Shown here: positions 13,931 to 63,563 of the stretch, piece after piece | Numbering within the stretch: position 1 is the first letter of the stretch | How the letters are laid out: each line of letters opens with the position of its first letter | NCBI GenBank assembly: GCA_001785615.1 | Contig: MFUG01000016.1 | Coordinates: 13,752 to 77,751, forward strand | Direction of reading: 5' to 3' | DNA length: 64,000 nt | Source of the DNA: Candidatus Nomurabacteria bacterium RIFCSPHIGHO2_02_FULL_42_19 | GTDB taxonomy: Bacteria; Patescibacteriota; Minisyncoccia; Phycocordibacterales; UBA9973 | The notes under the pieces: generated by a model | What the model saw: only the letters and a program-made list of their open reading frames with translations | Told to the model about the DNA's origin: nothing | The model's database searches: none | Program-made: the position numbers and the translations under genes

Positions 13931-14291
13931 TTATTTCATACCGAATTTCTCATATAACATAATATCGTACTTACCATCGATAATTCGGTCTTCTTTTTTC
14001 ACACCTAGCGTTTCCAGAAAATTAAAAAGTTCTTCTTGGGTCTTTTTTCTGTCTTCTTTATCTTCGCTTTTTACAATTTTTTCTGCCTCAATAAACTCGC
14101 CTAAATCTTTCACGCTATCTAAAACAATTTCTATCTTTCAATTCTATAGGTGGCGGAAAATCCACTCCTTCCGGAATGAAAATGTGGTCAACTTGATGTA
14201 ACTCTTCGGAGAATTTACAGCCGAAACTTTCTAATTTTTTTATTACTTCTTTCCTATTTCTTAACCGCGCCTTTACTTCGACTTCATACAT
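13931..14291 (-). pseudogene. CYTH-domain (CyaB/thiamine-triphosphatase-like) gene remnant, split by a frameshift
   Basis: Piece 1 (14115-14291) MYEVEVKARLRNRKEVIKKLESFGCKFSEELHQVDHIF..ELKDR* matches the CYTH N-terminus (EhEhK motif). Piece 2 (13931-14113, GTG start) is a CYTH C-terminal-like fragment (DLGEFIEAE....LGV). The two are 1 nt apart in different frames. Confidence 0.6.
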
Positions 14292-14294
14292 AGA

Positions 14295-14879
14295 TTATTC
14301 GTCTACCCCGAACCGTTTGTAGTCGAAAGTTTTTGAATTACCGAACCAGTGCTTAATTTCATGTTCCGCCTCTTCTGCCGTTTCAGAACAATGGACAATG
14401 TTAGCAACTGCACGTTTCTCTTTATTGGCAAGCGCTGGAGAATCAATAGAAAAGTCACCTCGAATTGTACCCACCTCAGCTAAATATGGCATCGTAGGGC
14501 CGGCAATTTTGCGAACAACATCTACTGCATGTACGCCCTGTACCACCATTTTCACAAGCGGAGCGGACTTCATGTAATCAATTAGCCATTTTCGAATTTC
14601 CGGACCAATAACTACTGGATCAACAGTGCCGAAGTCAGACATTGCGTCATAGCCATATTTTTTATAAGTGGCCAAGGTCTTGTGTCCGAGCCGCGTAATC
14701 CATTCTTCCTTCTTAGGATAATGGTCATCTAGCTGTTTATGGTCTGGCTGGAACATTTCTAGCGCCACGATTTTCAAGTCCCGCTGTTCAAAACGTTTTA
14801 TAATCTCCCCAGTAAGTCCCTTACGCACTCCGTCCGGTTTGATCATCACATATGTCCTTTCTTCTTTTGGATGTTTCAT
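14295..14879 (-). CDS. ndk: nucleoside diphosphate kinase (with internal insertion)
   Basis: ERTYVMIKPDGVRKGLTGEIIKRFEQRDLKIVALEM plus catalytic NIVHCSE. 194 aa versus about 140 typical. Confidence 0.85.
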   Translation of the reverse strand: MKHPKEERTYVMIKPDGVRKGLTGEIIKRFEQRDLKIVALEMFQPDHKQLDDHYPKKEEWITRLGHKTLATYKKYGYDAMSDFGTVDPVVIGPEIRKWLIDYMKSAPLVKMVVQGVHAVDVVRKIAGPTMPYLAEVGTIRGDFSIDSPALANKEKRAVANIVHCSETAEEAEHEIKHWFGNSKTFDYKRFGVDE

Positions 14880-14880
14880 A

Positions 14881-15225
14881 TTATTTTAACCTTAAATTAC
14901 TTATTTTTTCTCTTATGTTTTGTTTTATCCTGCTTATTTCTTCTTGTAGATTTATATCTGCCATTCTTTTTACCTCTTCCCTGGTCTCATTACTAACACC
15001 TTGTTCCCTTGACCCCGCAATTCCTCTTTCGTGCTTAGTAAGTGCAAGTTTTAAATCACGATTTGCCTCTTGAATAATTATAGAAAATCTTAATTTCAGA
15101 TCATCCTTCGCTTCAACAAGAAGATCATTCCAAAGTACTAAGATCTCTTTGGTTGTCTTTGTTTCTGGCGTCTCCCCTCCTTCAAGTGGCTTAGGCACAC
15201 CACCTAATGTATCTTCCTGTCCCAT
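14881..15225 (-). CDS. hypothetical protein (114 aa, charged/coiled-coil)
   Basis: ORF abutting ndk (start is 2 nt after this gene's stop region). No motif. Confidence 0.4.
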   Translation of the reverse strand: MGQEDTLGGVPKPLEGGETPETKTTKEILVLWNDLLVEAKDDLKLRFSIIIQEANRDLKLALTKHERGIAGSREQGVSNETREEVKRMADINLQEEISRIKQNIREKISNLRLK

Positions 15226-15262
15226 GCCCCTATCCTAGCAGAAAAAATTAATTTTGCAAAAT

Positions 15263-15769
15263 TTAAAGCACTCGAAATTCTGCACTTATAGGTAATAACT
15301 TTCTCTCATTCTTTAAATGCCATAAAATTCTTTTTACGTTATGTTCTGGAACTAAACTACCCATTTCTTCTAATCCTAAATAGAGTTTTACAATAGGAAC
15401 TTTAAAACCTGGAACTGAAACATAAACAAATCCTTTGACTATTCTTCTTTCTAAATTCCTAAGCTCTAGGAAGCTTGGCGCGTGATCAGGCGCTATTTCT
15501 GTAGTTATGTCGGAAGCTAAGTCAAGATCAATGTTGTCATGACGACTGCTTTGTGGGGATTTTAAAGTTTTTGGATCAATTGCATATCCATTGAGTAAAT
15601 TTCCTCTAGAAAAAAGTCCACGACCTTCTTTGCTTTTTCGTTCTACCTCTGTCAAAAGATTATCTAGTTCCTGCGGAGTAAAGGCTTGAAGTTTTCTTAA
15701 CTCTATTTCATATTCTCTTTCTGGTTTCTTAGGAGCTTCTACCTTAAAGATACCTCTCCCCTTCGTCAT
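15263..15769 (-). CDS. hypothetical protein (168 aa)
   Basis: ORF between the ATPase gene and the 114-aa ORF. No motif. Confidence 0.4.
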   Translation of the reverse strand: MTKGRGIFKVEAPKKPEREYEIELRKLQAFTPQELDNLLTEVERKSKEGRGLFSRGNLLNGYAIDPKTLKSPQSSRHDNIDLDLASDITTEIAPDHAPSFLELRNLERRIVKGFVYVSVPGFKVPIVKLYLGLEEMGSLVPEHNVKRILWHLKNERKLLPISAEFRVL

Positions 15770-15789
15770 ATCTTCTGGAACGTCACATT

Positions 15790-18555
15790 CTACTGCATCG
15801 TTTCAAACCTCCCCATAATTTCGGCTTCTACTTCAGCGCGGTCGCGGCCGTATCTTACATAAGAAAGTTCTTTCAGGCCATCCACAATCTCCGGGTTTCC
15901 TTTTTCTGGCGGTAAAGTACGTAAATTAAATGGCTTAACCGGCTGGCCATTAACCAGCATGCTCATATAGGCATTATGGTTGTCCAGCTTGGTTATATCT
16001 TGCGCATTAAATATCGGCTTGAACTTTTGTTCTAAAAAATTCGCATCTTCGGTGCCCACGCGGAACACCGCCATAGAGCCCACGTTGCCGAAGACCGCAT
16101 TTTTAATATTTTCTTCGAGCTGGGTGATATATTGGTGCGCAATGTTAAGCGATAAACGATATTTTCTGGCTTCCGATAAAATGGAAGTAATGGAATCCGT
16201 AGTCACGTTCTGAAATTCGTCAATGTAGAGATAAAAATCATTCATGGCCTTACCAAACATGTCCACTCGTGAAAGTGCCGCCATCTGGATCTTGCCTACT
16301 AGCACAAGTCCTATTAGATTTGCATTTATGTCACCCAGGCGGCCCTTGGAAAGGTTGACCAGAAGAATTTTCTTCTCATCCATAATTTTGCGGAAATTAA
16401 AAACGGAATTCTGTTGCAAGACCACCGGACGCATGATGTCGTTGGAAATAAAATTATCAAATTTTGAAGAAATATATGGTACGAAATTCGCCAGCGATTG
16501 ATCCCCGGTGGTCTGCTCGGCGGAAACCCAGAATTGTTTAATGATGGGGTTCTTGCAACGCTCTAGTTTCATATCGCGGAATTCTTTATCCGCCAAGACG
16601 CGAGTAATTTCGAGCAATGTAGAACCGGACTCTGGATCTTCCATCACCAGAAAGGCGCTGTTGCGGAAATACTGCTCAAACATCGCTCCCCCGCCTATTT
16701 TCATATCAAAAAGTTTATTAAAAATCCCCATCAGTTCATTGACCACGAAGGTCTTCTGCTCCGGATACTTGGTATCGTATTCAAGCATATTTAACCCCAT
16801 TGGACGAGGAGTATAAGCCGGATCAAAATAAATCACATCATCAATACGCTCCTTGGGAATGCGTGAGAGGATCGTCTGAATGTCGGTACCGTGCGGGTCT
16901 ATAAAGCAACAACCGTCGCCATTTCGAATGTCCTGCGTTATCATGTTGAGTAGAATATTTGTTTTACCGGTTCCGGTCTGACCAATAGTGTAGAAATGCC
17001 TCATACGGTCTTCCCGCGCCATGTGAATTTCAGTATCTCGGCCTCGGTAGCTATTTATCCCAAGCAGAACTCCCTCCGTTCCCATTTCAAGCGGTGCGGG
17101 CGCAATGCCAGACTTCGCTTCTTTGAGTTGTGGCTGACTGCCGATACCTACCGGAAAATGAAACACAGAAGCCAGTTCTTTTAGGTTAAGCGGTATAATT
17201 TTATCTCCCGAAAAAGTACGATAAGAGAAATCGTGAAAAAGTTTTTTCAAATTACCCCCCGAGAGATGTTCAAAAACGAAAGAATTACTGGCCGCTTCGG
17301 AAAACTGGTGAAAGGATGACTCTATTTCTTTTAAGATTGCTTCCGCGCGTTCCCGAGTAGCGCCGGAGGCAATAACCCGGATGTTGGCTTTCATAATGGT
17401 GCTTTTTATTTTGTTTCCTATTTTCTCAACCGCCCCTTCATCCACTGCCCGTCTGCCTTTCATGTATTTTTCTTTTTTTTCTTCCGGCTCCTTTTTAACT
17501 CCAAATAAAAGATCTTTGCCCACTTTCAAAAATGCTTGATTGAATTTATAAAAATTATCCGCCGCATGCTTGACCGATGTTCCGTCTTTTACGTCGTCTA
17601 GTATTTTGTGAAATTCGTTTATAAATTTATCGCCAGCCGGAGCAACCACCAGCTGAATAGCGGCCCCTTCGCCTTCGGTCTTAAGTTTAGAAAACACATT
17701 CAGAATGGTATTCATGGGGTCATGCTCTATGTTGTCATAGGTCTTGATAGGCATCACCGGACGCTCCGAGAATCTGGCATAAGCGCCAGCGGACCCACCT
17801 TCTTTATTGAAAACGTTATAGTCCTCTTTGGTTTCGTGCACTTTGGCGTTGTGGTAAAAAGCCAGGACCTGTTTCTCAAAAAGCGATAAGTGGGCATTTG
17901 GCACTGCTGCATAGACCACCACTTCATCGCTTTGGCTGGACAGTGCCACTTCTAAAGTAAAATAGTTTTCCTTTTCATTGTTCCTGCCGATAGAGATAGA
18001 ATGCATCCCTGCGTAAAATTGTTCCATGGCGCCGATAAATTCTTTGAATCCTTTTGATTTGTCGGCTTCGTCCGTGGGCGGCGGTAGAGTTATTTCAAAA
18101 AGCGTCATCTGGAGGGACTTATACATGGGGGTACCCTCCTTGAAATCAAGATTGACCTTCCCGGTTTTCAGATACTGAATTAAGACGCGATGAAAATCGT
18201 CATCCAGGTGTGGGTTGCTCATGGCCTCTACCACCGAGAGCGCATTTCTAATACCTTTGGTAATAACAATGCCCAAAAGTTCCTCCATCACAGTATCGTG
18301 CGGTTCTGGTTTTAGTTTTAGAATAATCCCTTGTTCATCTCTTTGGCTTATTAGATTGTCTTTGTGTAAGGCCTGCCCCTTTGGCACATTTTCATATTCC
18401 AAAATTACATCGTGCGCGGCGGTATCTTTTGTATTTTCAAAGTGTCCTTTAGCAATTAGCTCTTGTTCTCGTTTGGTAACATGCGCACGCAAATAGTTAA
18501 GCTCTTCTTCGGGGCTCTTAAACTTCGGCATCTCTTTGAAAAAAGATGGTTCCAT
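15790..18555 (-). CDS. large P-loop ATPase of the TraG/TraD/VirD4 (T4SS coupling protein)-like family, no N-terminal TM
   Basis: Walker A TIGQTGTGKTN and Walker B-like LYIDEFQNV. ARKYRLSLNIAHQYITQL...VGSMAVFRVGTED resembles T4CP C-terminal motifs. The roughly 470-aa N-terminal region has no recognised domain. Confidence 0.55.
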   Translation of the reverse strand: MEPSFFKEMPKFKSPEEELNYLRAHVTKREQELIAKGHFENTKDTAAHDVILEYENVPKGQALHKDNLISQRDEQGIILKLKPEPHDTVMEELLGIVITKGIRNALSVVEAMSNPHLDDDFHRVLIQYLKTGKVNLDFKEGTPMYKSLQMTLFEITLPPPTDEADKSKGFKEFIGAMEQFYAGMHSISIGRNNEKENYFTLEVALSSQSDEVVVYAAVPNAHLSLFEKQVLAFYHNAKVHETKEDYNVFNKEGGSAGAYARFSERPVMPIKTYDNIEHDPMNTILNVFSKLKTEGEGAAIQLVVAPAGDKFINEFHKILDDVKDGTSVKHAADNFYKFNQAFLKVGKDLLFGVKKEPEEKKEKYMKGRRAVDEGAVEKIGNKIKSTIMKANIRVIASGATRERAEAILKEIESSFHQFSEAASNSFVFEHLSGGNLKKLFHDFSYRTFSGDKIIPLNLKELASVFHFPVGIGSQPQLKEAKSGIAPAPLEMGTEGVLLGINSYRGRDTEIHMAREDRMRHFYTIGQTGTGKTNILLNMITQDIRNGDGCCFIDPHGTDIQTILSRIPKERIDDVIYFDPAYTPRPMGLNMLEYDTKYPEQKTFVVNELMGIFNKLFDMKIGGGAMFEQYFRNSAFLVMEDPESGSTLLEITRVLADKEFRDMKLERCKNPIIKQFWVSAEQTTGDQSLANFVPYISSKFDNFISNDIMRPVVLQQNSVFNFRKIMDEKKILLVNLSKGRLGDINANLIGLVLVGKIQMAALSRVDMFGKAMNDFYLYIDEFQNVTTDSITSILSEARKYRLSLNIAHQYITQLEENIKNAVFGNVGSMAVFRVGTEDANFLEQKFKPIFNAQDITKLDNHNAYMSMLVNGQPVKPFNLRTLPPEKGNPEIVDGLKELSYVRYGRDRAEVEAEIMGRFETMQ

Positions 18556-18575: not shown

Positions 18576-19343
18576 CTAGGGTTTAGTTAAAATTTCTGGC
18601 TCGTTGTCGGTGATGAGAATCGTATGTTCAAAGTGCGCGCTCTTTTTTCCATCCGCCGTGCGAAAAGTGTAGCCATCGGGGTCTAGGGTCACATTTTTTG
18701 TGCCCTGGTTTAACATCGGCTCCAGCGCTATGACCATGCCCGGCACCAGTTTTATTCCTTTTCCTTTCTTCCCGAAATTCGGAACGTATGGATCTTCGTG
18801 AATGGCTTTACCCACGCCGTGTCCCGCCAAGACCTCTACAATGCCGTATTTATGAGTCCGCACAAAGCTCTCAATGGCATGCCCAATGTCGCCGGTGCTG
18901 TTCCCCGCAACGGCGTTGCTGATGCCTACGTTTAGGGCTTGTTCGGTAATTTCTAAAAGCTTAGCTGAAGCAGGGCTAACCTCGCCCACTGGTACAGTCA
19001 GGGCCATATCGGTAAATAGTTCTTTATGCTGAAGGCCTAGGTCAATTGAAACAACGTCACCTGCTTTTAGAATTTTTTTTGTACTTGGGATGCCATGCAC
19101 CACTTCATCATTCACGGAAACACACAGAGAGGCCGGGAAGAGCGCCTTTGTCCCTGCTGGCCGATAGTTCAAAAAGGCCGGGGTATCCCCCATTTCTTTA
19201 ATTAGCGTAAAGGCGTAGTCATCCAGGTCCTTGGTAGAGAGCCCAGGGGCCACTTTGTCTTTCACTTTGCGGAGTATGGTCGCTAAACGCTTTCCTCCTT
19301 CGCGCAGGATTTCTATTTCTTGTGGTGTTTTAATTATAATCAT
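18576..19343 (-). CDS. map: methionine aminopeptidase type I
   Basis: Pita-bread fold motifs (VVHGIP, DVVSIDLG, HGVGKAIHE, EPM). Confidence 0.9.
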   Translation of the reverse strand: MIIIKTPQEIEILREGGKRLATILRKVKDKVAPGLSTKDLDDYAFTLIKEMGDTPAFLNYRPAGTKALFPASLCVSVNDEVVHGIPSTKKILKAGDVVSIDLGLQHKELFTDMALTVPVGEVSPASAKLLEITEQALNVGISNAVAGNSTGDIGHAIESFVRTHKYGIVEVLAGHGVGKAIHEDPYVPNFGKKGKGIKLVPGMVIALEPMLNQGTKNVTLDPDGYTFRTADGKKSAHFEHTILITDNEPEILTKP

Positions 19344-21351: not shown

Positions 21352-21900
21352 TTAGAGACCAAAATGATCTTTTAGCTTTTTATCATCCAAAACTTTGCTT
21401 ACTTCTAAAATCTCAATGTGTTTTCGTACGCCGAAAAAGTCTGCCACAAAGAGCATCTCCCCTTCACAAGGATATGGGTATACCCAGGTGCTTTTTTGAA
21501 ATTGCATAAATCCTAAGTCCTTTAATTTCCACCTGAAGGCCTCTCGCGCTTTTTTAAATCTGATGGGCAGATCATACATCACGATACGCCATTTGCCATC
21601 CCATTTACTCTGCTCTTTTATCACAATTTCATCAATAAATATCTTGCGCAGTTTATTTTCTCCTTTTTCTGTAAGAGTATAAAAATCCTTTTGTTCTCTT
21701 TTCACACGTCTCACAAATTTATAACGCCTGAGACCACCCAAAACTCTCTGCGCTTCTTTATCGCGATATGACAATTTCTCTCCAAGAGCGATAGCGCACA
21801 AGAAACTATGCGCGAGATTCAATCCTTCCCCGCCAGCGCTAAATACTTTCTTAAGCTTAATCAAATGTTCCCGTTTAACCATATACGTGAATTCTAGCAT
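21352..21900 (-). CDS. PaaX-like regulator (wHTH N-terminus + PaaX-C/Cas2-like C-terminal domain); probable start at second Met (21882)
   Basis: C-terminal SKWDGKWRIVMYDLPIRFKKAREAFRWKLKDLGFMQFQKSTWVYP fits the PaaX C-domain / Cas2-like pattern W.G.W..v.YD.p...R...R..L...GF..lQ.SvW. N-terminal KFVRRVKREQKDFYTLTEKGENKL looks like a winged helix. First 6 codons are encoded by the palindrome itself. Confidence 0.55.
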   Translation of the reverse strand: MLEFTYMVKREHLIKLKKVFSAGGEGLNLAHSFLCAIALGEKLSYRDKEAQRVLGGLRRYKFVRRVKREQKDFYTLTEKGENKLRKIFIDEIVIKEQSKWDGKWRIVMYDLPIRFKKAREAFRWKLKDLGFMQFQKSTWVYPYPCEGEMLFVADFFGVRKHIEILEVSKVLDDKKLKDHFGL

Positions 21901-51456: not shown

Positions 51457-52431
51457 CTAAAATGGGTCAGTGCCTTGAATCAGTCGAACTGGTCCCGGCT
51501 GAATTATAATACCCTGATTACTATCTATAACGCGAGGGGGTAAACTTATAGGATTGTTTTCTGAACTCTCTGTATTTTGATTTTCTGTCTGATTTTCCGG
51601 GTCGGGGTTTGTGATAGGGCTGATTGGGACAGGAGTAGGAGACAAGGGCTCTATTTCCTCTTCTATCTCCGCTAACTGTTCTTGGACGGTAGTGACTTCT
51701 GTTTGCGCCTGCGTCACCACTGCCTGTTGTGCCACTACTTCTTCTGGCTCTATGGAGGTGGGGGGCGGAAAGTTGGAGGAAGTTTGACTGGATTCTACTT
51801 GTGAATTATGGTTTTCTATCGCGGTCTCAAGAGAAGTTAAGACCTCGTTTATATCTACTATGGACGGAAGTTGTGAAAAGTAAGTATCTATTTGAAATTG
51901 GGAAAGTTCTGAATCCTCCGGGGTCAAGCTTGCCACTATTTTAGCAAGGTTTTCTATGAACGTTTTGATTATTTCGGTATCTGCTTTTATTTTTTCTGCT
52001 TCACTTACGCCTATCTCTTTAATCGATAAAATATCGGTTTTTGCCAGCCACTCTGCAAGGAGTAGATTGATATATTGTCTCTCCGCATTTATTAGAATGT
52101 CGGGTAAAGGATTGTCTACAATTATTTCCGGGTTGGATCCATCGGGATCGGTAAATATAAAGTCGGTCTGTTTGACTATGTCCGAGGCCTGTTTTATTTG
52201 GTCTTGAACACTCGTACCTAATGCAAAAGAATTCTGCAGGTCGCCAAGCATAGTGCTCAATGCCCCCTTGGCTCTATTAAATTTATCTTCTGCGGTAATT
52301 AAATTACTTTCCAGTTTATTTTTTCGGGCCATTAAATCATCTAATTCACTCTCGCGCGTTAAAAAATATCCTCCCGTTAGAATAGTTATTAAAAAAGCTA
52401 TGCCTGCGCCAATAATAACTGATTTACTCAC
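51457..52431 (-). CDS. hypothetical membrane-anchored coiled-coil protein with P/T/E-rich linker
   Basis: N-terminal TM, heptad-rich middle, low-complexity C-terminus. Confidence 0.4.
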   Translation of the reverse strand: MSKSVIIGAGIAFLITILTGGYFLTRESELDDLMARKNKLESNLITAEDKFNRAKGALSTMLGDLQNSFALGTSVQDQIKQASDIVKQTDFIFTDPDGSNPEIIVDNPLPDILINAERQYINLLLAEWLAKTDILSIKEIGVSEAEKIKADTEIIKTFIENLAKIVASLTPEDSELSQFQIDTYFSQLPSIVDINEVLTSLETAIENHNSQVESSQTSSNFPPPTSIEPEEVVAQQAVVTQAQTEVTTVQEQLAEIEEEIEPLSPTPVPISPITNPDPENQTENQNTESSENNPISLPPRVIDSNQGIIIQPGPVRLIQGTDPF

Positions 52432-57208: not shown

Positions 57209-58915
57209 TTAAAGAAATTCCCCTTGGTAGCACTTCTCACAATAAACTATCTCGGGCCGTTCCGGTGCATACGAAGTCCTAATTGGCTTTTCGCATTTCA
57301 TGCACTCTCGGTCAAAAAAGACAGGCGGGTTAGTACGGACAAAACGCAATTTCTGCCGGCAGTTAAAACATTGAACGGGAAGTGGTAAATTTAATTTACG
57401 CATTAAATTAAGCTCACCCATGGTAAAACGATATGCGTTACTACAATTGTTACATTCAATCACTTCGTTTAAAATAGACTCATCTGTTTCCTTAATAGTT
57501 TTTGGCAAGTCCTTTGCTTTTTTTGTGATATCATATTCATTTTTTATTTCTTCATGCCATTTATAACCTTCTGTTAGTGCTTGTTTTTCACTTTTAGGAA
57601 AAAACTGATATGCAACTGTTTCATTGTAGGCAAAAGGGGTAAGGTCAATTGGAAAAAATTCTCCATACGGCCAAATTTGTCCCTGCTTGTCTTTATAGGG
57701 ATTCGTTTTCATATCTTTAATAATTTGTGCCTTTAATTTTTCATATTCCGCTTTTGAATATTCTTTGTTGAGGATGCAATATCGTTTCTTCTTCAGATTA
57801 ACACTACCAAAACAATCTCTACATCCATTAAGGGCGTACATGCAATATTCTATATCGAGGGCATTAGGCCAGCATTGGTAAGAAAATTTAACGTTACTTG
57901 CTCCTTCCCCACTTATAGCAGATTCATAAATTTTCTCAGAATTGTTACCCCAGCCTGTGTAATCATAACAATCTTTGGCTTTTGCCAAACTTACAATTTG
58001 GGTATATTTTCCGTCTTCCACTCCGGAAACCATATAGCAATCTCTGGCATTTTTCGATTCATAAATATAGTCACCAGACACATTCTTATTTAAAGCGTTC
58101 CCGATATAAAATCTTCTCGGATATTTATTCCAAAATTCAAATGCTTTTTCGCGCATCTCGTCTAAGTTTTTACGCGAATCAAGATTGTATTCTTTCAATT
58201 TTGCAAAATAATTTTCACGCGAATACTGTTCATTAAAGATACAATAACTCTTATTTCGGAGATTTACACAGCCAAAACAATTTACCAAACCGGAACAACT
58301 GCGGGAAAACAGAGTATCCGTACAAGCATCGCATTCTTCGGAGAAAAAGGTTTTGTAGCACCTATCGCATCCCACAGATTCATAACATAATTCAGATTCT
58401 TTCATGCGATAACAATCTATCGAGTCTTTCAGCCCCGCGAGATATGAGGAATAGAAAACATTATCGCAATAATCTGCCCAAAATGTCATATAACAATTTT
58501 TCAGGTGAGCAACAGCATTCGTGTATTCGCTATTTTTTAAAGTTAAGTAGTTTAATTCAAGTGCTTGCCAGGGAGTTTTGGCTACTAAATCCTTAAGCTG
58601 TTCAAAAAAGGGGCGACTTGTGTCATATTTTTGCGCATACTCTGTTCCATCCCATGAGTCACTCCACCAACAACGACTGCAAAAGACGACTTCAGATTTA
58701 TCAGGAGAGTGATTAGAAAGAGTTACTTTGCCACATTTGTTACAATTTCTTTTATAAAGATTCCAAACATTCACAAATGAAAATCTTCGAATCATGCGGC
58801 ATTCCGGACACCAAGTCGGCGACGGAACGGAAATTTTTTCATAGAAATTAAAATCTTCCGTTTCTATAACGAAGTCCTTACGACAATTTTGACAAGATTT
58901 AGTTTCTTTATTCAT
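57209..58915 (-). CDS. large cysteine-rich protein (568 aa, ~45 Cys) with terminal zinc-ribbon-like CxxC pairs and internal repeated C..DCFG.VNL..K.YCI.N..YS units
   Basis: CQNCRK..CPEC, CNKCGK..CSRC at the N-terminus. Internal repeats GCDRCYKTF../GCVNLRNKSYCIFNEQYS and GCRDCFGSVNLKKKRYCILNKEYS. C-terminus CNNC..CFNC, CMKC..CEKC. Confidence 0.5.
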   Translation of the reverse strand: MNKETKSCQNCRKDFVIETEDFNFYEKISVPSPTWCPECRMIRRFSFVNVWNLYKRNCNKCGKVTLSNHSPDKSEVVFCSRCWWSDSWDGTEYAQKYDTSRPFFEQLKDLVAKTPWQALELNYLTLKNSEYTNAVAHLKNCYMTFWADYCDNVFYSSYLAGLKDSIDCYRMKESELCYESVGCDRCYKTFFSEECDACTDTLFSRSCSGLVNCFGCVNLRNKSYCIFNEQYSRENYFAKLKEYNLDSRKNLDEMREKAFEFWNKYPRRFYIGNALNKNVSGDYIYESKNARDCYMVSGVEDGKYTQIVSLAKAKDCYDYTGWGNNSEKIYESAISGEGASNVKFSYQCWPNALDIEYCMYALNGCRDCFGSVNLKKKRYCILNKEYSKAEYEKLKAQIIKDMKTNPYKDKQGQIWPYGEFFPIDLTPFAYNETVAYQFFPKSEKQALTEGYKWHEEIKNEYDITKKAKDLPKTIKETDESILNEVIECNNCSNAYRFTMGELNLMRKLNLPLPVQCFNCRQKLRFVRTNPPVFFDRECMKCEKPIRTSYAPERPEIVYCEKCYQGEFL

Positions 58916-61384: not shown

Positions 61385-61933
61385 TTATGGAATAAAACTT
61401 AAAAGCTTTATCTTGAAAACGGCCGCCCACTGCGGAGCTGGGTTTTTGCTGTCCAAGACCCCTCCCCCAGCGGACGTCTCCAGGGTCATGGAAATAAAAT
61501 CAAGTTCATAAGGAGAATTCTCCAGCAGGGTTAAAAATTTATAAAGTGCTTCAAAAGACCCGGTCGCGTTCACTCCGACCACCAGCCCGCTGTTATCCTT
61601 CGGCACTTCCACAAGGATAACTTCCGCTTTGGCCCCTGCGTCTCCGGCTAGTTTTTCAGTCATATTAAGAAACGGCACAATATCGGAACCCTGGATAAAG
61701 TGGGCGTTAAGTAATATATATTCTTTTTCAATTGTTTGCAGTAAGCGCTCTAATGATTTTATTTCGTCTTGCCTATTTACTTCACTTTGTCGTTCCATCT
61801 CCAGCTCGGCCGAGGTTTGATAATTATTTTGGGTCTGTCTATATAAAAAAATAAAAACAAAACAGGAAAGTAAAAGAAGGGCGGTGGAAAGTATAAGCGG
61901 TATTTTTTTAAATTTTTGAAAATTATTCTGCAT
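61385..61933 (-). CDS. pilO: type IV pilus assembly protein PilO-like
   Basis: N-terminal TM + coiled coil + periplasmic domain. Position after the PilN-like gene. Confidence 0.5.
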   Translation of the reverse strand: MQNNFQKFKKIPLILSTALLLLSCFVFIFLYRQTQNNYQTSAELEMERQSEVNRQDEIKSLERLLQTIEKEYILLNAHFIQGSDIVPFLNMTEKLAGDAGAKAEVILVEVPKDNSGLVVGVNATGSFEALYKFLTLLENSPYELDFISMTLETSAGGGVLDSKNPAPQWAAVFKIKLLSFIP

Positions 61934-61934
61934 A

Positions 61935-62477
61935 CTAAGAAGGGGTTAGTCCTAAAGAAAATTTAATATTTGATCCTTTGACAAAATTAGAAATAGGCAA
62001 GTCAACTTTTTTAAAGGCGATATTGTTTTCCAGTTCCCGCTTGAATAAAAGTAGCCGGTCCCGGGAAGACGCCACCCCGCTGATGCTTATGGTCTTGCCT
62101 TTTATGGATTCATTACGATACTGGATTTGAGTAATTTTAATATCGGGCATTTTCTCAGACATGATTTCATTTATTACTTTCTGCGAAACGAGGTATCTAC
62201 TATTACGGCTTTTTTCAATTAAATCCAGCTTTTTACTCAAGTCCTCAACCACCGTGAGAGTTTCTTTATCGGGAGAGGGTATGGATTGATTTTTTTCTGT
62301 TTCAAGTTTGCTGTTAATAAGATTTTTTCTGACCGAAGAAAGAAAATAAGCCGGCAACATGGCTACTCCGGCGATCAGAATAGAAAAGCCGAACACTGCA
62401 AAGGCGGTAACTAACAGACGGTAGTAAAAATCCTTTACTTTTTTCTTTTTTTCTTCATTTGGAATTAAATTAATCAT
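61935..62477 (-). CDS. pilN: type IV pilus assembly protein PilN-like
   Basis: MINLIP... then TM LLVTAFAVFGFSILIAGVAMLPAYF. 180 aa, directly downstream of pilM. Confidence 0.55.
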   Translation of the reverse strand: MINLIPNEEKKKKVKDFYYRLLVTAFAVFGFSILIAGVAMLPAYFLSSVRKNLINSKLETEKNQSIPSPDKETLTVVEDLSKKLDLIEKSRNSRYLVSQKVINEIMSEKMPDIKITQIQYRNESIKGKTISISGVASSRDRLLLFKRELENNIAFKKVDLPISNFVKGSNIKFSLGLTPS

Positions 62478-62480
62478 ATT

Positions 62481-63563
62481 TTATTCGTGCTCGAAGTCCC
62501 CCAAGGCGAGCCCCAAAGCCGCCGCAAAGGTCAGGGAGCGGTTAAAAGTTATTTCCGGAATATATTTTTCGGTATTTATTATATTAATCCAGACATTGGC
62601 TGTTTCTACTTTATTTTTTATACTAATAGAAAAATATTCAGGTAATCCCGTTAAGTTAGCGTCTCCGCCACAAAGAATTATTTTCTTAATAGGTGGATGA
62701 TTTCGATCCTTTTCGTCTTTGTGGGTATGCCAATATAAGAAATGCTTGACTATTTCATCGCGCAAAACAGAAGCACTATTTAGAAGCACCGAAAATATTT
62801 CTTTATTGGCCATATTGCGCTCCAGGCCGAACTTTCTTTTCATTTTTTCCGCCTCCTCCAGACCTACGTTAAAGTTTTTTGCAATCATTTGGGTAAGCAT
62901 TGCTCCGCCAAGATCCAAAGTGGAAGTAAATACCGCTATTCCATGAGAGATAATAAAAATTCCGGTTCGGGTCTGGCCAAAATCCACAATCATATAGGTT
63001 TCCATGTCGCCTTTTTTTATAACCGCTCGAGAGATGGCCTGGGCCTCAAGTTCAAACGACTGAACAGAGAGCATTGAATTTCTAAAAACCGATAAATAAT
63101 TTTCAATAATATTTTTTGGGATGGCGGCAACTTGAAGTTCTAGACCTTGTTCGTCTTCACTTAATAACTCATAATCAAATATCGCATCTTGGGCTGGAAT
63201 CGGTACGTGCTCTTCCAGAGAAAGTTCTATCCCCTCTCGAACGTTTACTAAACCCACTTTATCCAAATGCAACCGAAAGAGATAGACCTGCTCCTCCGGC
63301 AAAGAGACGCGTACAAAACGAAGTCCTTCATCCTTTTTAAGAGATAACAAGACCTGTTCCAGCCGTTTGGGGTCCTTGATCTTGCCGGACTCAATGATCC
63401 CCACGGGGATCTTGCGTTCTCCATATCTGCCTATTCTAATGCCACTTTTCGCCGGCACAAGCTCTACAAATTTTAGGGACTCATCGGAAATATCCAAACC
63501 GAAAGAGGGCGCCATCAGAAATCTTGGAGTCGGGAAAAACCTATTATACAAATTCCTGAACAT
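62481..63563 (-). CDS. pilM: type IV pilus assembly ATPase-like protein PilM (actin-like fold)
   Basis: FGLDISDESLKFVEL.., DFGQTRTGIFII, LGGAMLT. Confidence 0.7.
   Translation of the reverse strand: MFRNLYNRFFPTPRFLMAPSFGLDISDESLKFVELVPAKSGIRIGRYGERKIPVGIIESGKIKDPKRLEQVLLSLKKDEGLRFVRVSLPEEQVYLFRLHLDKVGLVNVREGIELSLEEHVPIPAQDAIFDYELLSEDEQGLELQVAAIPKNIIENYLSVFRNSMLSVQSFELEAQAISRAVIKKGDMETYMIVDFGQTRTGIFIISHGIAVFTSTLDLGGAMLTQMIAKNFNVGLEEAEKMKRKFGLERNMANKEIFSVLLNSASVLRDEIVKHFLYWHTHKDEKDRNHPPIKKIILCGGDANLTGLPEYFSISIKNKVETANVWINIINTEKYIPEITFNRSLTFAAALGLALGDFEHE

Follow-up and report, generated by a model that had tools for sequence, protein, structure and literature searches.

The 921-aa protein encoded between map and ndk in the window (the whole stretch of 64,000 nt of Candidatus Nomurabacteria DNA that was analysed) is the product of a core gene that is passed on vertically in Patescibacteria, and consists of a partner domain, a VirB4-like domain and a coupling-protein-type motor. 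We propose, at a probability of about one half, that it is a coupling-type ATPase which would dock on a chromosomal T4SS via its VirB4-like domain, with the two small ORFs beside it being unrelated. In the protein collection searched, the ORF matches GenBank OGI75668.1 (locus tag A3C67_02655, Ca. Nomurabacteria) exactly. A preliminary description, made from the letters of the DNA, had placed three ORFs between map and ndk and had quoted three motifs, GQTGTGKT, YIDEFQNV and ARKYRLSLNIAHQ; both observations could be confirmed, with all three ORFs on the minus strand (Table 1) and all motifs present in the translation.

Table 1. Genes, domains and motifs at the locus, in window coordinates; residue numbers refer to the 921-aa protein.
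Feature	Position	Strand	Basis or remark
ndk	14295-14879		flanks the three ORFs, opposite end from map; NDK E 5e-36
114-aa ORF	14881..15225	-	ORF list
168-aa ORF	15263..15769	-	ORF list
921-aa ORF, DUF8128 + T4CP-type ATPase	15790..18555	-	ORF list
Residues 490-921, RecA-type nucleotide-binding domain, VirD4/VirB4/HerA clade, T4CP signatures	15793..17088	-
ARKYRLSLNIAHQ; R797, K798 and Q808 conserved	16132..16170	-	aligns with TrwB 'RK...GLQ' segment (HMMER)
Walker B FYLYIDEFQNV; D779 and E780 invariant	16204..16236	-	translation, 38-sequence alignment
Helical insertion between Walker A and B, residues ~585-720	16396..16803	-	AF2 secondary structure
Walker A GQTGTGKT; G525, G528 and K531 invariant	16960..16983	-	translation, 38-sequence alignment
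Residues 145-470, DUF8128 domain, VirB4 N-terminal domain fold	17146..18123	-
Residues 1-135, helical N-terminal domain, fused copy of small partner gene	18151..18555	-	HMM, hhalign
map	18576-19343		flanks the three ORFs, opposite end from ndk; Peptidase_M24 E 6e-42

The N-terminal ~470 residues had been described as a region of unknown fold, which holds in that no fold is annotated for them, but they can now be divided into a fused partner domain and a domain folded like the N-terminal part of VirB4. An HMM built from a cluster of 141-aa upstream genes (c5) matches residues 13-128 with an E-value of 1.2e-9; for other long forms the values go down to 4e-16. An hhalign comparison of this cluster against the N-terminal domain gave a probability of 97%. 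Among the long forms the helical partner domain is found in 37/38 and a TM helix in 0/38, while the short forms (~800 aa) carry a single N-terminal TM helix in 30/35 cases, with a small c5 or c30 gene located immediately upstream in 25 of the 33 for which upstream sequence was available. In the Nomurabacteria-type form, the partner is fused at the N-terminus, where it replaces the TM helix of the ~800-aa members. The absence of a TM anchor from the 921-aa protein, as noted previously, is reflected in a maximum 19-residue Kyte-Doolittle mean of 1.54, located in a core beta-strand region. The AF2 model (mean pLDDT 84.8) displays helices at residues 600-703, and 363 residues align with TrwB, a structure made up of the nucleotide-binding and all-alpha domains; from its position, we infer that the insertion at residues ~585-720 is the equivalent of the T4CP all-alpha domain. 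No description of this three-part architecture of partner domain, VirB4-like domain and T4CP motor was found in the literature searched.

The earlier assignment as a TraG/TraD/VirD4-like P-loop ATPase was supported by Pfam, with weak matches of the 921-aa protein to TraG-D_C (24.4 bits, cut-off 22) and TrwB_AAD_bind (21.8 bits, cut-off 20.5), both above threshold. Both models match 34/38 diverse family members, and T4SS-DNA_transf matches 14/38. Since a search of PDB sequences with the single sequence returned only marginal matches to RecA and TrwB, a family profile was needed, from which TrwB (3e-6) and DotL (2e-4) were retrieved and no VirB4 was found. Matches to NCBIfam models were limited to TraD, TrbC and CedD and lay far below cut-off. 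The fold of TrwB, a nucleotide-binding domain with an all-alpha domain, is present in the 921-aa protein, and the N-terminal TM domain of VirD4 type with two or more helices, a further T4CP feature, is absent. By its sequence signature the motor domain is of T4CP (VirD4/TrwB) class; its structure alone does not tell it apart from HerA or VirB4. By analogy with TrwB and HerA, the ATPase is probably hexameric.

VirB4 is the top match of the DUF8128 region, whose fold is that of the N-terminal domain in VirB4. One could read the whole family as VirB4 itself, serving as that ATPase in the T4SS of Patescibacteria, or as a second, divergent VirB4, a reading which we regard as unlikely. AAA_10 matches only 1/38 members (E 9e-4), CagE_TrbE_VirB is missing from the matches listed for these 38 members, and, in agreement with the PDB profile search, scoring of the motor domain favours T4CP models over VirB4 models. 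From hhalign, the probability was 1.8% against the VirB4 of a Bacillus plasmid and 80% over just 113 columns against TrsE of pGO1. TrsD, which is encoded by pGO1 and by CPR T4SS clusters and resembles the N-terminal part of VirB4, was compared with DUF8128 as a possible relative, and hhalign returned nothing. The N-terminal domain of the family differs from that of VirB4 (TrwK of R388; TrsE, PrgJ or TcpF in monoderms) in lacking a detectable sequence relationship. In addition, a separate, bona fide VirB4 exists both in Patescibacteria, where it forms a clade of its own adjoining VirB3, TrsD and VirB2 (PMC12102498), and on the Bacillus plasmid, which also encodes a DUF8128-type homologue.

The Patescibacteria family to which the 921-aa protein is assigned is very large, counting 4,976 cluster representatives at E<=1e-30. 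A search with the protein itself yielded more than 1,700 homologues; the best 120 in the list come from Nomurabacteria/Paceibacterota and are 83-99% identical. PF26449 (DUF8128) is contained in the precomputed annotations of all 120, and the Pfam search of the 921-aa protein itself gave no PF26449 match. The preliminary description regarded the ATPase gene as an interruption of an expected operon, which is not the case: the map-ATPase order recurs at ~20 related Patescibacteria loci at 46-89% identity, with ndk downstream in 17 of them, and the divergence of the ATPase gene is about that of map and ribosomal proteins, tracking the flanking housekeeping genes. As the gene keeps its position in the order secY-adk-map-X-ndk within its lineage, it does not represent an insertion, a mobile element or part of a defence island. 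A housekeeping family with conserved synteny had been named as the finding that would speak against a module for DNA translocation, competence or defence. Synteny is indeed conserved and the gene behaves as a core gene, but the family is of T4CP class and not FtsK, as FtsK_SpoIIIE matches only 2/38 members, weakly, and the FtsK motor signature is not found in the 921-aa protein.

The two small ORFs remain unannotatable, as described before, with no match in Pfam, NCBIfam, PADLOC or PHROG. They do not form a three-gene module with the ATPase gene, since tblastn revealed no homologue of either in 82 related loci. The 168-aa ORF is a real gene of a narrow lineage, unlinked to the ATPase, having only 11 homologues (50-100% identical, mostly ~230 aa) which sit elsewhere, adjoining genes of nucleotide metabolism (dCMP deaminase, guaA and ribonucleotide reductase). 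The 114-aa ORF is lysine/glutamate-rich, its stop codon directly precedes the ndk start codon, and a single other homologue (99% identical) was found among 5.8 billion proteins; it is a strain-level orphan, likewise unlinked to the ATPase. Both are unrelated, lineage-specific genes at a variable spot between the ATPase gene and ndk.

Two readings in which these ORFs would take part have to be weighed against this background. If a conjugative or mobilizable element had left a remnant between map and ndk, with the small ORFs as cargo, this would account for the T4CP homology, the adjoining orphan ORFs and the existence of plasmid and phage homologues. This reading is contradicted by the conserved position and by the divergence that follows the flanking genes, and we consider it very improbable; the GC content at the locus shows no marked deviation, repeats flanking the two small ORFs are at chance level only, and no nearby tRNA and no integrase, relaxase or T4SS gene was found at the locus. 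We assign a similarly low likelihood to a role in anti-phage defence, in which a HerA/MADS-type ATPase would act together with the two downstream ORFs; a defence-related module was among the previous suggestions. PADLOC returned a partial mad8 match (E 7e-10, residues 517-820) that covers the ATPase core only, which is shared among such ATPases, and no MADS system was recovered, as the adjoining ORFs are without PADLOC match. There is no HAS-barrel, and no HerA entry is among the matches listed for the N-terminal domain. A nuclease, Sir2, methylase or other effector partner of HerA type was not found, the downstream ORFs are not co-conserved, and the gene's housekeeping-like conservation, its occurrence across the lineage and its fixed position mark it as part of the core and not of a defence island, so that this role is largely contradicted. 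The locus is ordinary, a core gene at its usual place followed by two orphan ORFs. At the level of consensus scans, a single promoter-like match (10/12) lies just 5' of the ATPase start, whereas the scan of 14881-18555 for minus-strand terminators gave no convincing candidate.

Comparison with known systems further delineates the family. From T4CPs (VirD4/TrwB/TraG/TraD; CONJScan t4cp1) it differs by a ~330-aa VirB4-type domain between anchor and motor, by a single TM helix in family members and none in the 921-aa protein, compared to two or more in T4CPs, and by a chromosomal core gene which in Patescibacteria is unlinked to relaxase or T4SS genes. None of the five architectural T4CP subfamilies in a review (PMC7434980) contains such an N-terminal domain, although a TMD-less subfamily is recognised. 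Judged from the text of that review, TraJ of pIP501, with its membrane partner TraI, has in common with our protein a coupling-type ATPase without TM of its own and a small co-encoded partner; the TraJ partner is, however, a membrane protein, while the partner in the DUF8128 family is soluble, helical and here fused, and the VirB4-like domain is added. HerA, FtsK, TcpA and EccC are set apart by the lack of HAS-barrel, FtsK gamma domain, FtsK_SpoIIIE signature and nuclease partner in the 921-aa protein.

Linkage to relaxase and/or mating-pair-formation genes was only observed for Bacillus plasmid and SPO1-like phage homologues. The plasmid homologues, among them an 886-aa protein on a small B. 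subtilis plasmid (type NZ_CP032854.1), share the same architecture, occupy the position of the coupling protein beside a relaxase and, accompanied by T4SS genes, represent the closest non-CPR relatives of this architecture. pLS20 was rejected as a model for them because its T4CP, with two TM helices at the N-terminus, is of a different type. Homologues of the same architecture are also encoded by lytic Bacillus phages, themselves devoid of a T4SS, which counts against T4SS docking, as does the likeness of the motor structure to HerA and VirB4.

According to a survey by Quinonero-Coronel et al. 2025 (PMC12102498), VirD4-like T4CP homologues occur in nearly all Patescibacteria and almost never beside virB4. 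Table S3 of this survey lists a single high-coverage hit for most of the genomes inspected, including those of Nomurabacteria. Judged from gene index and copy number, and not from accession, the DUF8128 family probably corresponds to these homologues; in the main text of the survey, no domain architecture, VirB4-like N-terminal domain, partner gene or fusion was found. Some Nomurabacteria genomes carry a second t4cp1 match of lower coverage ~26 genes from virB4 (PMC12102498), an observation that counts against docking of the DUF8128 protein on the T4SS. The same applies to the t4cp homologue of S. epibionticum, which may or may not be of the DUF8128 family and was reported as non-essential, even though the T4SS is essential (PMC12102498). 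Among the large ORFs of the window no VirB4 was found, these encoding FtsH, EF-G, a DEAD-box helicase, MurB, PilM and others instead, and homologues of VirB3, VirB6 or VirB8 were found neither among them nor in 80 loci. Within +-8 kb, VirB4, TcpC, TcpE and relaxase homologues were present in 0/80 Patescibacteria (CPR) loci, and relaxases are almost absent from CPR altogether (109, in 103/3,035 genomes; PMC12102498); both findings are counted against docking.

A possible reading, to which we give appreciable weight, is that of an exapted, T4CP-derived translocase, acting independently of a T4SS as a housekeeping DNA motor in import for nucleotide scavenging, competence or chromosome- or replication-linked handling. 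Exaptation of the T4CP homologues is raised by the survey authors themselves (PMC12102498), and the phage homologues and the lack of T4SS genes beside the family in all 80 loci are in line with it. The long-form ATPase gene is surrounded by genes of nucleotide salvage (cmk, adk, a UMP-kinase-like gene, ndk, CYTH and MazG), and the recurrent neighbours in short-form lineages include dnaX and rmuC, which were recognised by inspection of their sequences. However, the adk/map neighbourhood may just be the tail of the ribosomal-protein operon. T4CP homologues were reported in more genomes (2,918) than VirB4 (2,417), but since draft genomes (>50% complete) are included and two profiles, t4cp1 and t4cp2, are pooled in these counts, the excess is weak evidence (PMC12102498). 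Exaptation is further opposed by the closest relatives outside CPR accompanying relaxase and T4SS genes, and by the VirB4-type N-terminal domain, a module whose known role elsewhere is docking on the T4SS.

The N-terminal domain of VirB4 is the part which anchors VirB4 to the inner-membrane complex of the T4SS. In the docking model that we propose, the VirB4-like domain would place the ATPase on a chromosomal, monoderm-type T4SS, where it may use the energy of ATP for recruiting protein or DNA substrates and/or feeding them in, and would fill the coupling-protein role that is absent from the T4SS gene cluster. A more far-reaching version, which we put forward as speculative and rather doubtful, holds that the essential T4SS of Patescibacteria has its missing coupling ATPase in the DUF8128 family, which would at the same time be a surviving intermediate between VirB4 and VirD4, and of which the Nomurabacteria form would be soluble, with a regulator or adaptor fused in exchange for the TM anchor. 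If true, coupling proteins would have come from a VirB4 duplicate that first docked on the inner-membrane complex in the fashion of VirB4.

Epibiotic growth of Patescibacteria depends on a T4SS whose gene cluster is without recognizable coupling protein or relaxase. A coupling-type ATPase which is probably near-universal and features a VirB4-like docking domain is an obvious candidate for linking substrates to this T4SS, and the small partner protein, whether separate or fused, offers an entry point for studying interactions. Its hybrid build gives the ATPase a bearing on the divergence of VirB4 and VirD4 and on where coupling proteins sit on the T4SS.

The three ORFs that the preliminary description had placed between map and ndk could be confirmed on the minus strand from the ORF list and translation, and the motifs GQTGTGKT, FYLYIDEFQNV and ARKYRLSLNIAHQ it had quoted were all found in the 921-aa protein. 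An exact look-up matched it to OGI75668.1, encoded under locus tag A3C67_02655 in a MAG assigned to Candidatus Nomurabacteria; GenBank labels the protein hypothetical, UniRef a TraD/TraG TraM-recognition-site protein. Upstream of map, following the direction of transcription, secY comes first, then a PaaX-like gene and cmk, which is encoded on the opposite strand, and finally adk and a UMP-kinase-like amino-acid kinase. The expectation that infA, rpmJ and rpsM follow map fails in this lineage; the tail of the spc operon leads into nucleotide kinases (cmk, adk, UMP-kinase-like, ndk), not into the alpha operon, and tblastn with approximate E. coli queries gave no match to infA, rpmJ, rpsM or rpsK anywhere in the 64-kb window. 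In the PaaX-like protein the middle domain resembles Cas2 (PaaX_M, E 2.5e-19); its gene, located between secY and cmk/adk, is missing from the corresponding position in the related loci L001 and L002.

Coordinates of the features discussed (window positions unless a locus is named)
Feature	Position	Strand	Remark
921-aa ORF	15790-18555	-	ORF list
168-aa ORF	15263-15769	-	ORF list
114-aa ORF	14881-15225	-	ORF list
map	18576-19343		flank of the three ORFs
ndk	14295-14879		flank of the three ORFs
PaaX-like gene	21352-21900	-	
CYTH gene	13931-14291	-	appears broken
CYTH, first part	14115-14291		matches first ~49 aa
CYTH, last part	13931-14113		matches last ~60 aa
Type IV pilus platform cluster	61385-63563	-	
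PilM	62481-63563	-	PilM_2, E 1e-32
568-aa ORF	57209-58915	-	
324-aa ORF	51457-52431	-	
168-aa ORF homologue	L083 6001-6690		
168-aa ORF homologue	L085 6001-6714		
Goe10 cassette	L091 2722-8232		

The gene for the 921-aa protein belongs to the core genome and occupies its usual position. More than 1,700 homologues came from a word-indexed search. Among these, the 120 best matches listed are 83-99% identical, belong to Nomurabacteria/Paceibacterota and all bear the precomputed PF26449 (DUF8128) annotation. An exhaustive search matched 19,623 representatives of 50%-identity clusters at E<=1e-3, 4,976 of them also at E<=1e-30. Scanning species-representative genomes confirmed at least 598 ATPase loci; the best 80 of these carry nearly all Patescibacteria/CPR names, with a few MAGs under other automatic taxon labels. 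The order secY-(cmk)-adk-kinase-map-ATPase-...-ndk is repeated in relatives, with map upstream of the ATPase in 19-21 and ndk downstream in 17 of the related loci. In the 22 syntenic loci compared, identity of the ATPase to its homologue in the window lies at 46-89% (mean ~60%), keeping pace with its neighbours (map 60%, L6 64%, S8 62%, L20 62%, SecY 67%). No marked deviation in GC content was observed, and neither flanking repeats nor a tRNA was found near the locus. With synteny kept and divergence matching that of the neighbours, the reading of the gene as an insertion is unsupported, and the locus is real yet ordinary for its lineage.

A full-length AlphaFold2 model, built from a 38-sequence alignment and confident overall (pLDDT 84.8), predicts three separable parts. 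Residues ~490-921 form an ATPase of RecA type that falls in the VirD4/VirB4/HerA clade. All 38 sequences retain its Walker A lysine, the Asp-Glu pair of Walker B and the R797/K798/Q808 segment unchanged. Profile comparisons favour the type IV coupling protein (T4CP) class for this motor domain. TrwB_AAD_bind and TraG-D_C each match 34 of 38 diverse members, so that the earlier assignment to a T4SS-coupling-protein-like family was right, with T4SS-DNA_transf (14/38), FtsK_SpoIIIE (2/38) and AAA_10 (1/38) found less often. Among PDB sequences the family profile matched TrwB (3e-6), DotL (2e-4) and then HerA (0.014), and did not match VirB4. With hhalign, the family aligned to the pGO1 coupling protein TrsK at 92% probability over 307 columns and to the pGO1 VirB4 (TrsE) at 80% over 113 columns.

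Residues ~145-470 constitute the DUF8128 domain, which, modelled separately (pLDDT 84.2, pTM 0.83), shows the fold of a VirB4-type N-terminal domain; full-length TrwK was also top-ranked in a Foldseek search with the full-length model. At the sequence level, hhalign detected no similarity of DUF8128 to the VirB4 N-terminal domain or to TrsD, and no paper mentioning DUF8128 was found in the literature searched.

The remaining part, residues ~1-135, could be traced to a separate gene. The short forms, family members of ~800 aa, start at query residue ~145; their N-terminus is a strongly hydrophobic helix with Lys/Arg residues after it. Upstream sequence was available for 33 short-form loci: in 20 of these a ~141-aa gene (cluster c5) lies directly upstream on the same strand, and in 5 more an unrelated-looking ~166-aa gene (c30) replaces it. 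The c5 HMM matches the window protein at residues 13-128 with E 1.2e-9, and other members of its long form with up to 4e-16; hhalign supports the relation at 97% probability. Long forms carry the c5-like domain in 37/38 cases and a TM helix in 0/38, short forms an N-terminal TM helix in 30/35. By these comparisons, the partner gene has been fused onto the ATPase N-terminus in the window lineage with loss of the membrane anchor, which explains why the preliminary description saw no such anchor; this observation is borne out, as the 921-aa protein contains no hydrophobic segment of TM strength. In 7 of the short-form loci L041-L082 the opposite strand encodes, just downstream of the ATPase gene, a ~827-aa protein without Pfam match (c21), with a hydrophobic central stretch in the example read, and dnaX and rmuC lie repeatedly near the ATPase in these loci.

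The two small ORFs are not conserved with the ATPase. No homologue of the 168-aa ORF occurs in 82 related loci; its 11 homologues, most of ~230 aa, adjoin dCMP deaminase (with overlapping stop and start codons) or guaA and ribonucleotide reductase, and the window copy lies near ndk. This family without known domain thus has a recurrent nucleotide-metabolism context, a separate small lead, and may be an uncharacterised nucleotide-salvage-associated protein. The predicted 114-aa ORF, rich in lysine and glutamate and with the ndk start codon immediately after its stop codon, has a single homologue (99% identical) among 5.8 billion proteins. In relatives, the slot between ATPase and ndk holds differing genes, e.g. 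LysE, CYTH or small ORFs, and is a variable spot; the three ORFs do not form a module. Downstream of ndk, the CYTH gene appears broken, with its middle missing: two short ORFs cover only its ends compared to the intact 183-186-aa genes of L001 and L002. Elsewhere, in the type IV pilus platform cluster, PilM precedes two ~180-aa ORFs, candidates for PilN and PilO; the cluster lies ~43 kb from the ATPase and has no evident link to it. The 568-aa and 324-aa ORFs have no Pfam match at E<=1e-3.

Relatives outside CPR were found on plasmids and phages. Most of 353 plasmid records from tblastn align over the motor domain only; an 886-aa 'DUF87' protein of small Bacillus plasmids, without TM helix, matches both domains (BLASTP 1e-36; hhalign 100% probability, E 7e-52, 655 columns). 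On the B. subtilis plasmid NZ_CP032854.1 this homologue heads an operon, and behind it come a Replic_Relax relaxase, TcpC, TcpE, a separate VirB4 (AAA_10) and additional transfer proteins. The plasmid annotation shows no second coupling protein, and the homologue therefore fills the coupling-protein slot; the family profile shows no similarity to the VirB4 of this plasmid. PHROG 5156 (unknown function) matches residues 147-918 (E 6e-83), and Bacillus phage homologues include SPO1-like phages, phage G and TP-84. In phage vB_BsuM-Goe10, the homologue gp27.4, a DUF8128-like ATPase, is preceded by the ParM-like gp27.9 and small membrane proteins and followed by the replication-relaxation protein gp27.3. 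This gene set, carried by SPO1-like lytic phages, looks like a plasmid-type cassette and parallels the combination of ParM with ATPase-relaxase genes on small Bacillus plasmids (L087, NZ_CP032854.1).

In a survey published in 2025, VirB4 was reported for 2,417 of 3,035 Patescibacteria genomes, and 5,713 T4CP homologues, only 148 of them near virB4, were spread over 2,918 genomes; the t4cp homologue of Southlakia epibionticum was non-essential, its T4SS genes were essential, and exaptation could not be excluded by the authors (PMC12102498). In the part of its Table S3 examined, most genomes, Nomurabacteria included, have one t4cp1 match with 87-98% profile coverage, 'not near virB4' (PMC12102498), and these single matches are probably the DUF8128-ATPase family. 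The same part lists Patescibacteria VirB4 matches covering only ~51-59% of the VirB4 profile, often adjoined by a separate, VirB4-N-terminal-like TrsD gene (PMC12102498), a pattern that points to a split VirB4 in these systems; between the DUF8128 profile and pGO1 TrsD, hhalign gave no similarity. A Cell 2023 study described the essential S. epibionticum T4SS cluster as being without recognizable coupling and relaxase proteins (PMC10633639). The family is thus already catalogued, while a description of its architecture was not found in the literature searched.

The comparisons above show a catalytically intact coupling-class ATPase that has a VirB4-type N-terminal domain and a conserved small partner, fused here. 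The ATPase shows core-gene conservation at a fixed position, and its non-CPR relatives sit in a coupling-protein slot. In the R388 inner-membrane complex (2022 cryo-EM), the VirB4 N-terminal domain reportedly contacts VirB3 and the VirB8 tails, and we therefore propose that the ATPase would dock on the chromosomal T4SS through its VirB4-like domain, acting as substrate receptor or motor, with the small partner as a putative adaptor or regulator in loose analogy with CagZ/Cag-beta or DotL adaptors; we give this explanation overall a probability of about 0.5. The main rival, an exapted DNA-handling motor working independently of any T4SS, is a possible though less probable reading, consistent with the complete absence of T4SS and relaxase genes from 80 neighbourhoods, the location among nucleotide-salvage genes in the long-form lineage, the recurrence of dnaX and rmuC in short-form lineages and the homologues in phages without T4SS. 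That the protein is a true VirB4 is improbable and contradicted by our tests, as are, with still smaller likelihood, a mobile-element remnant and the defence system suggested earlier, for which the locus gave no support.

None of the five reviewed T4CP architectural subfamilies (VirD4-type, TraG-J pairs, TMD-less, FtsK-type and archaeal) has the VirB4-like N-terminal domain (PMC7434980), in contrast to the DUF8128 ATPase. The resolved architecture of fused partner, VirB4-like domain and coupling-class motor is what we add to the first reading. It sets the DUF8128-ATPase family apart as an undescribed type IV coupling protein variant and makes it a candidate for supplying the coupling function that the Patescibacteria T4SS lacks.
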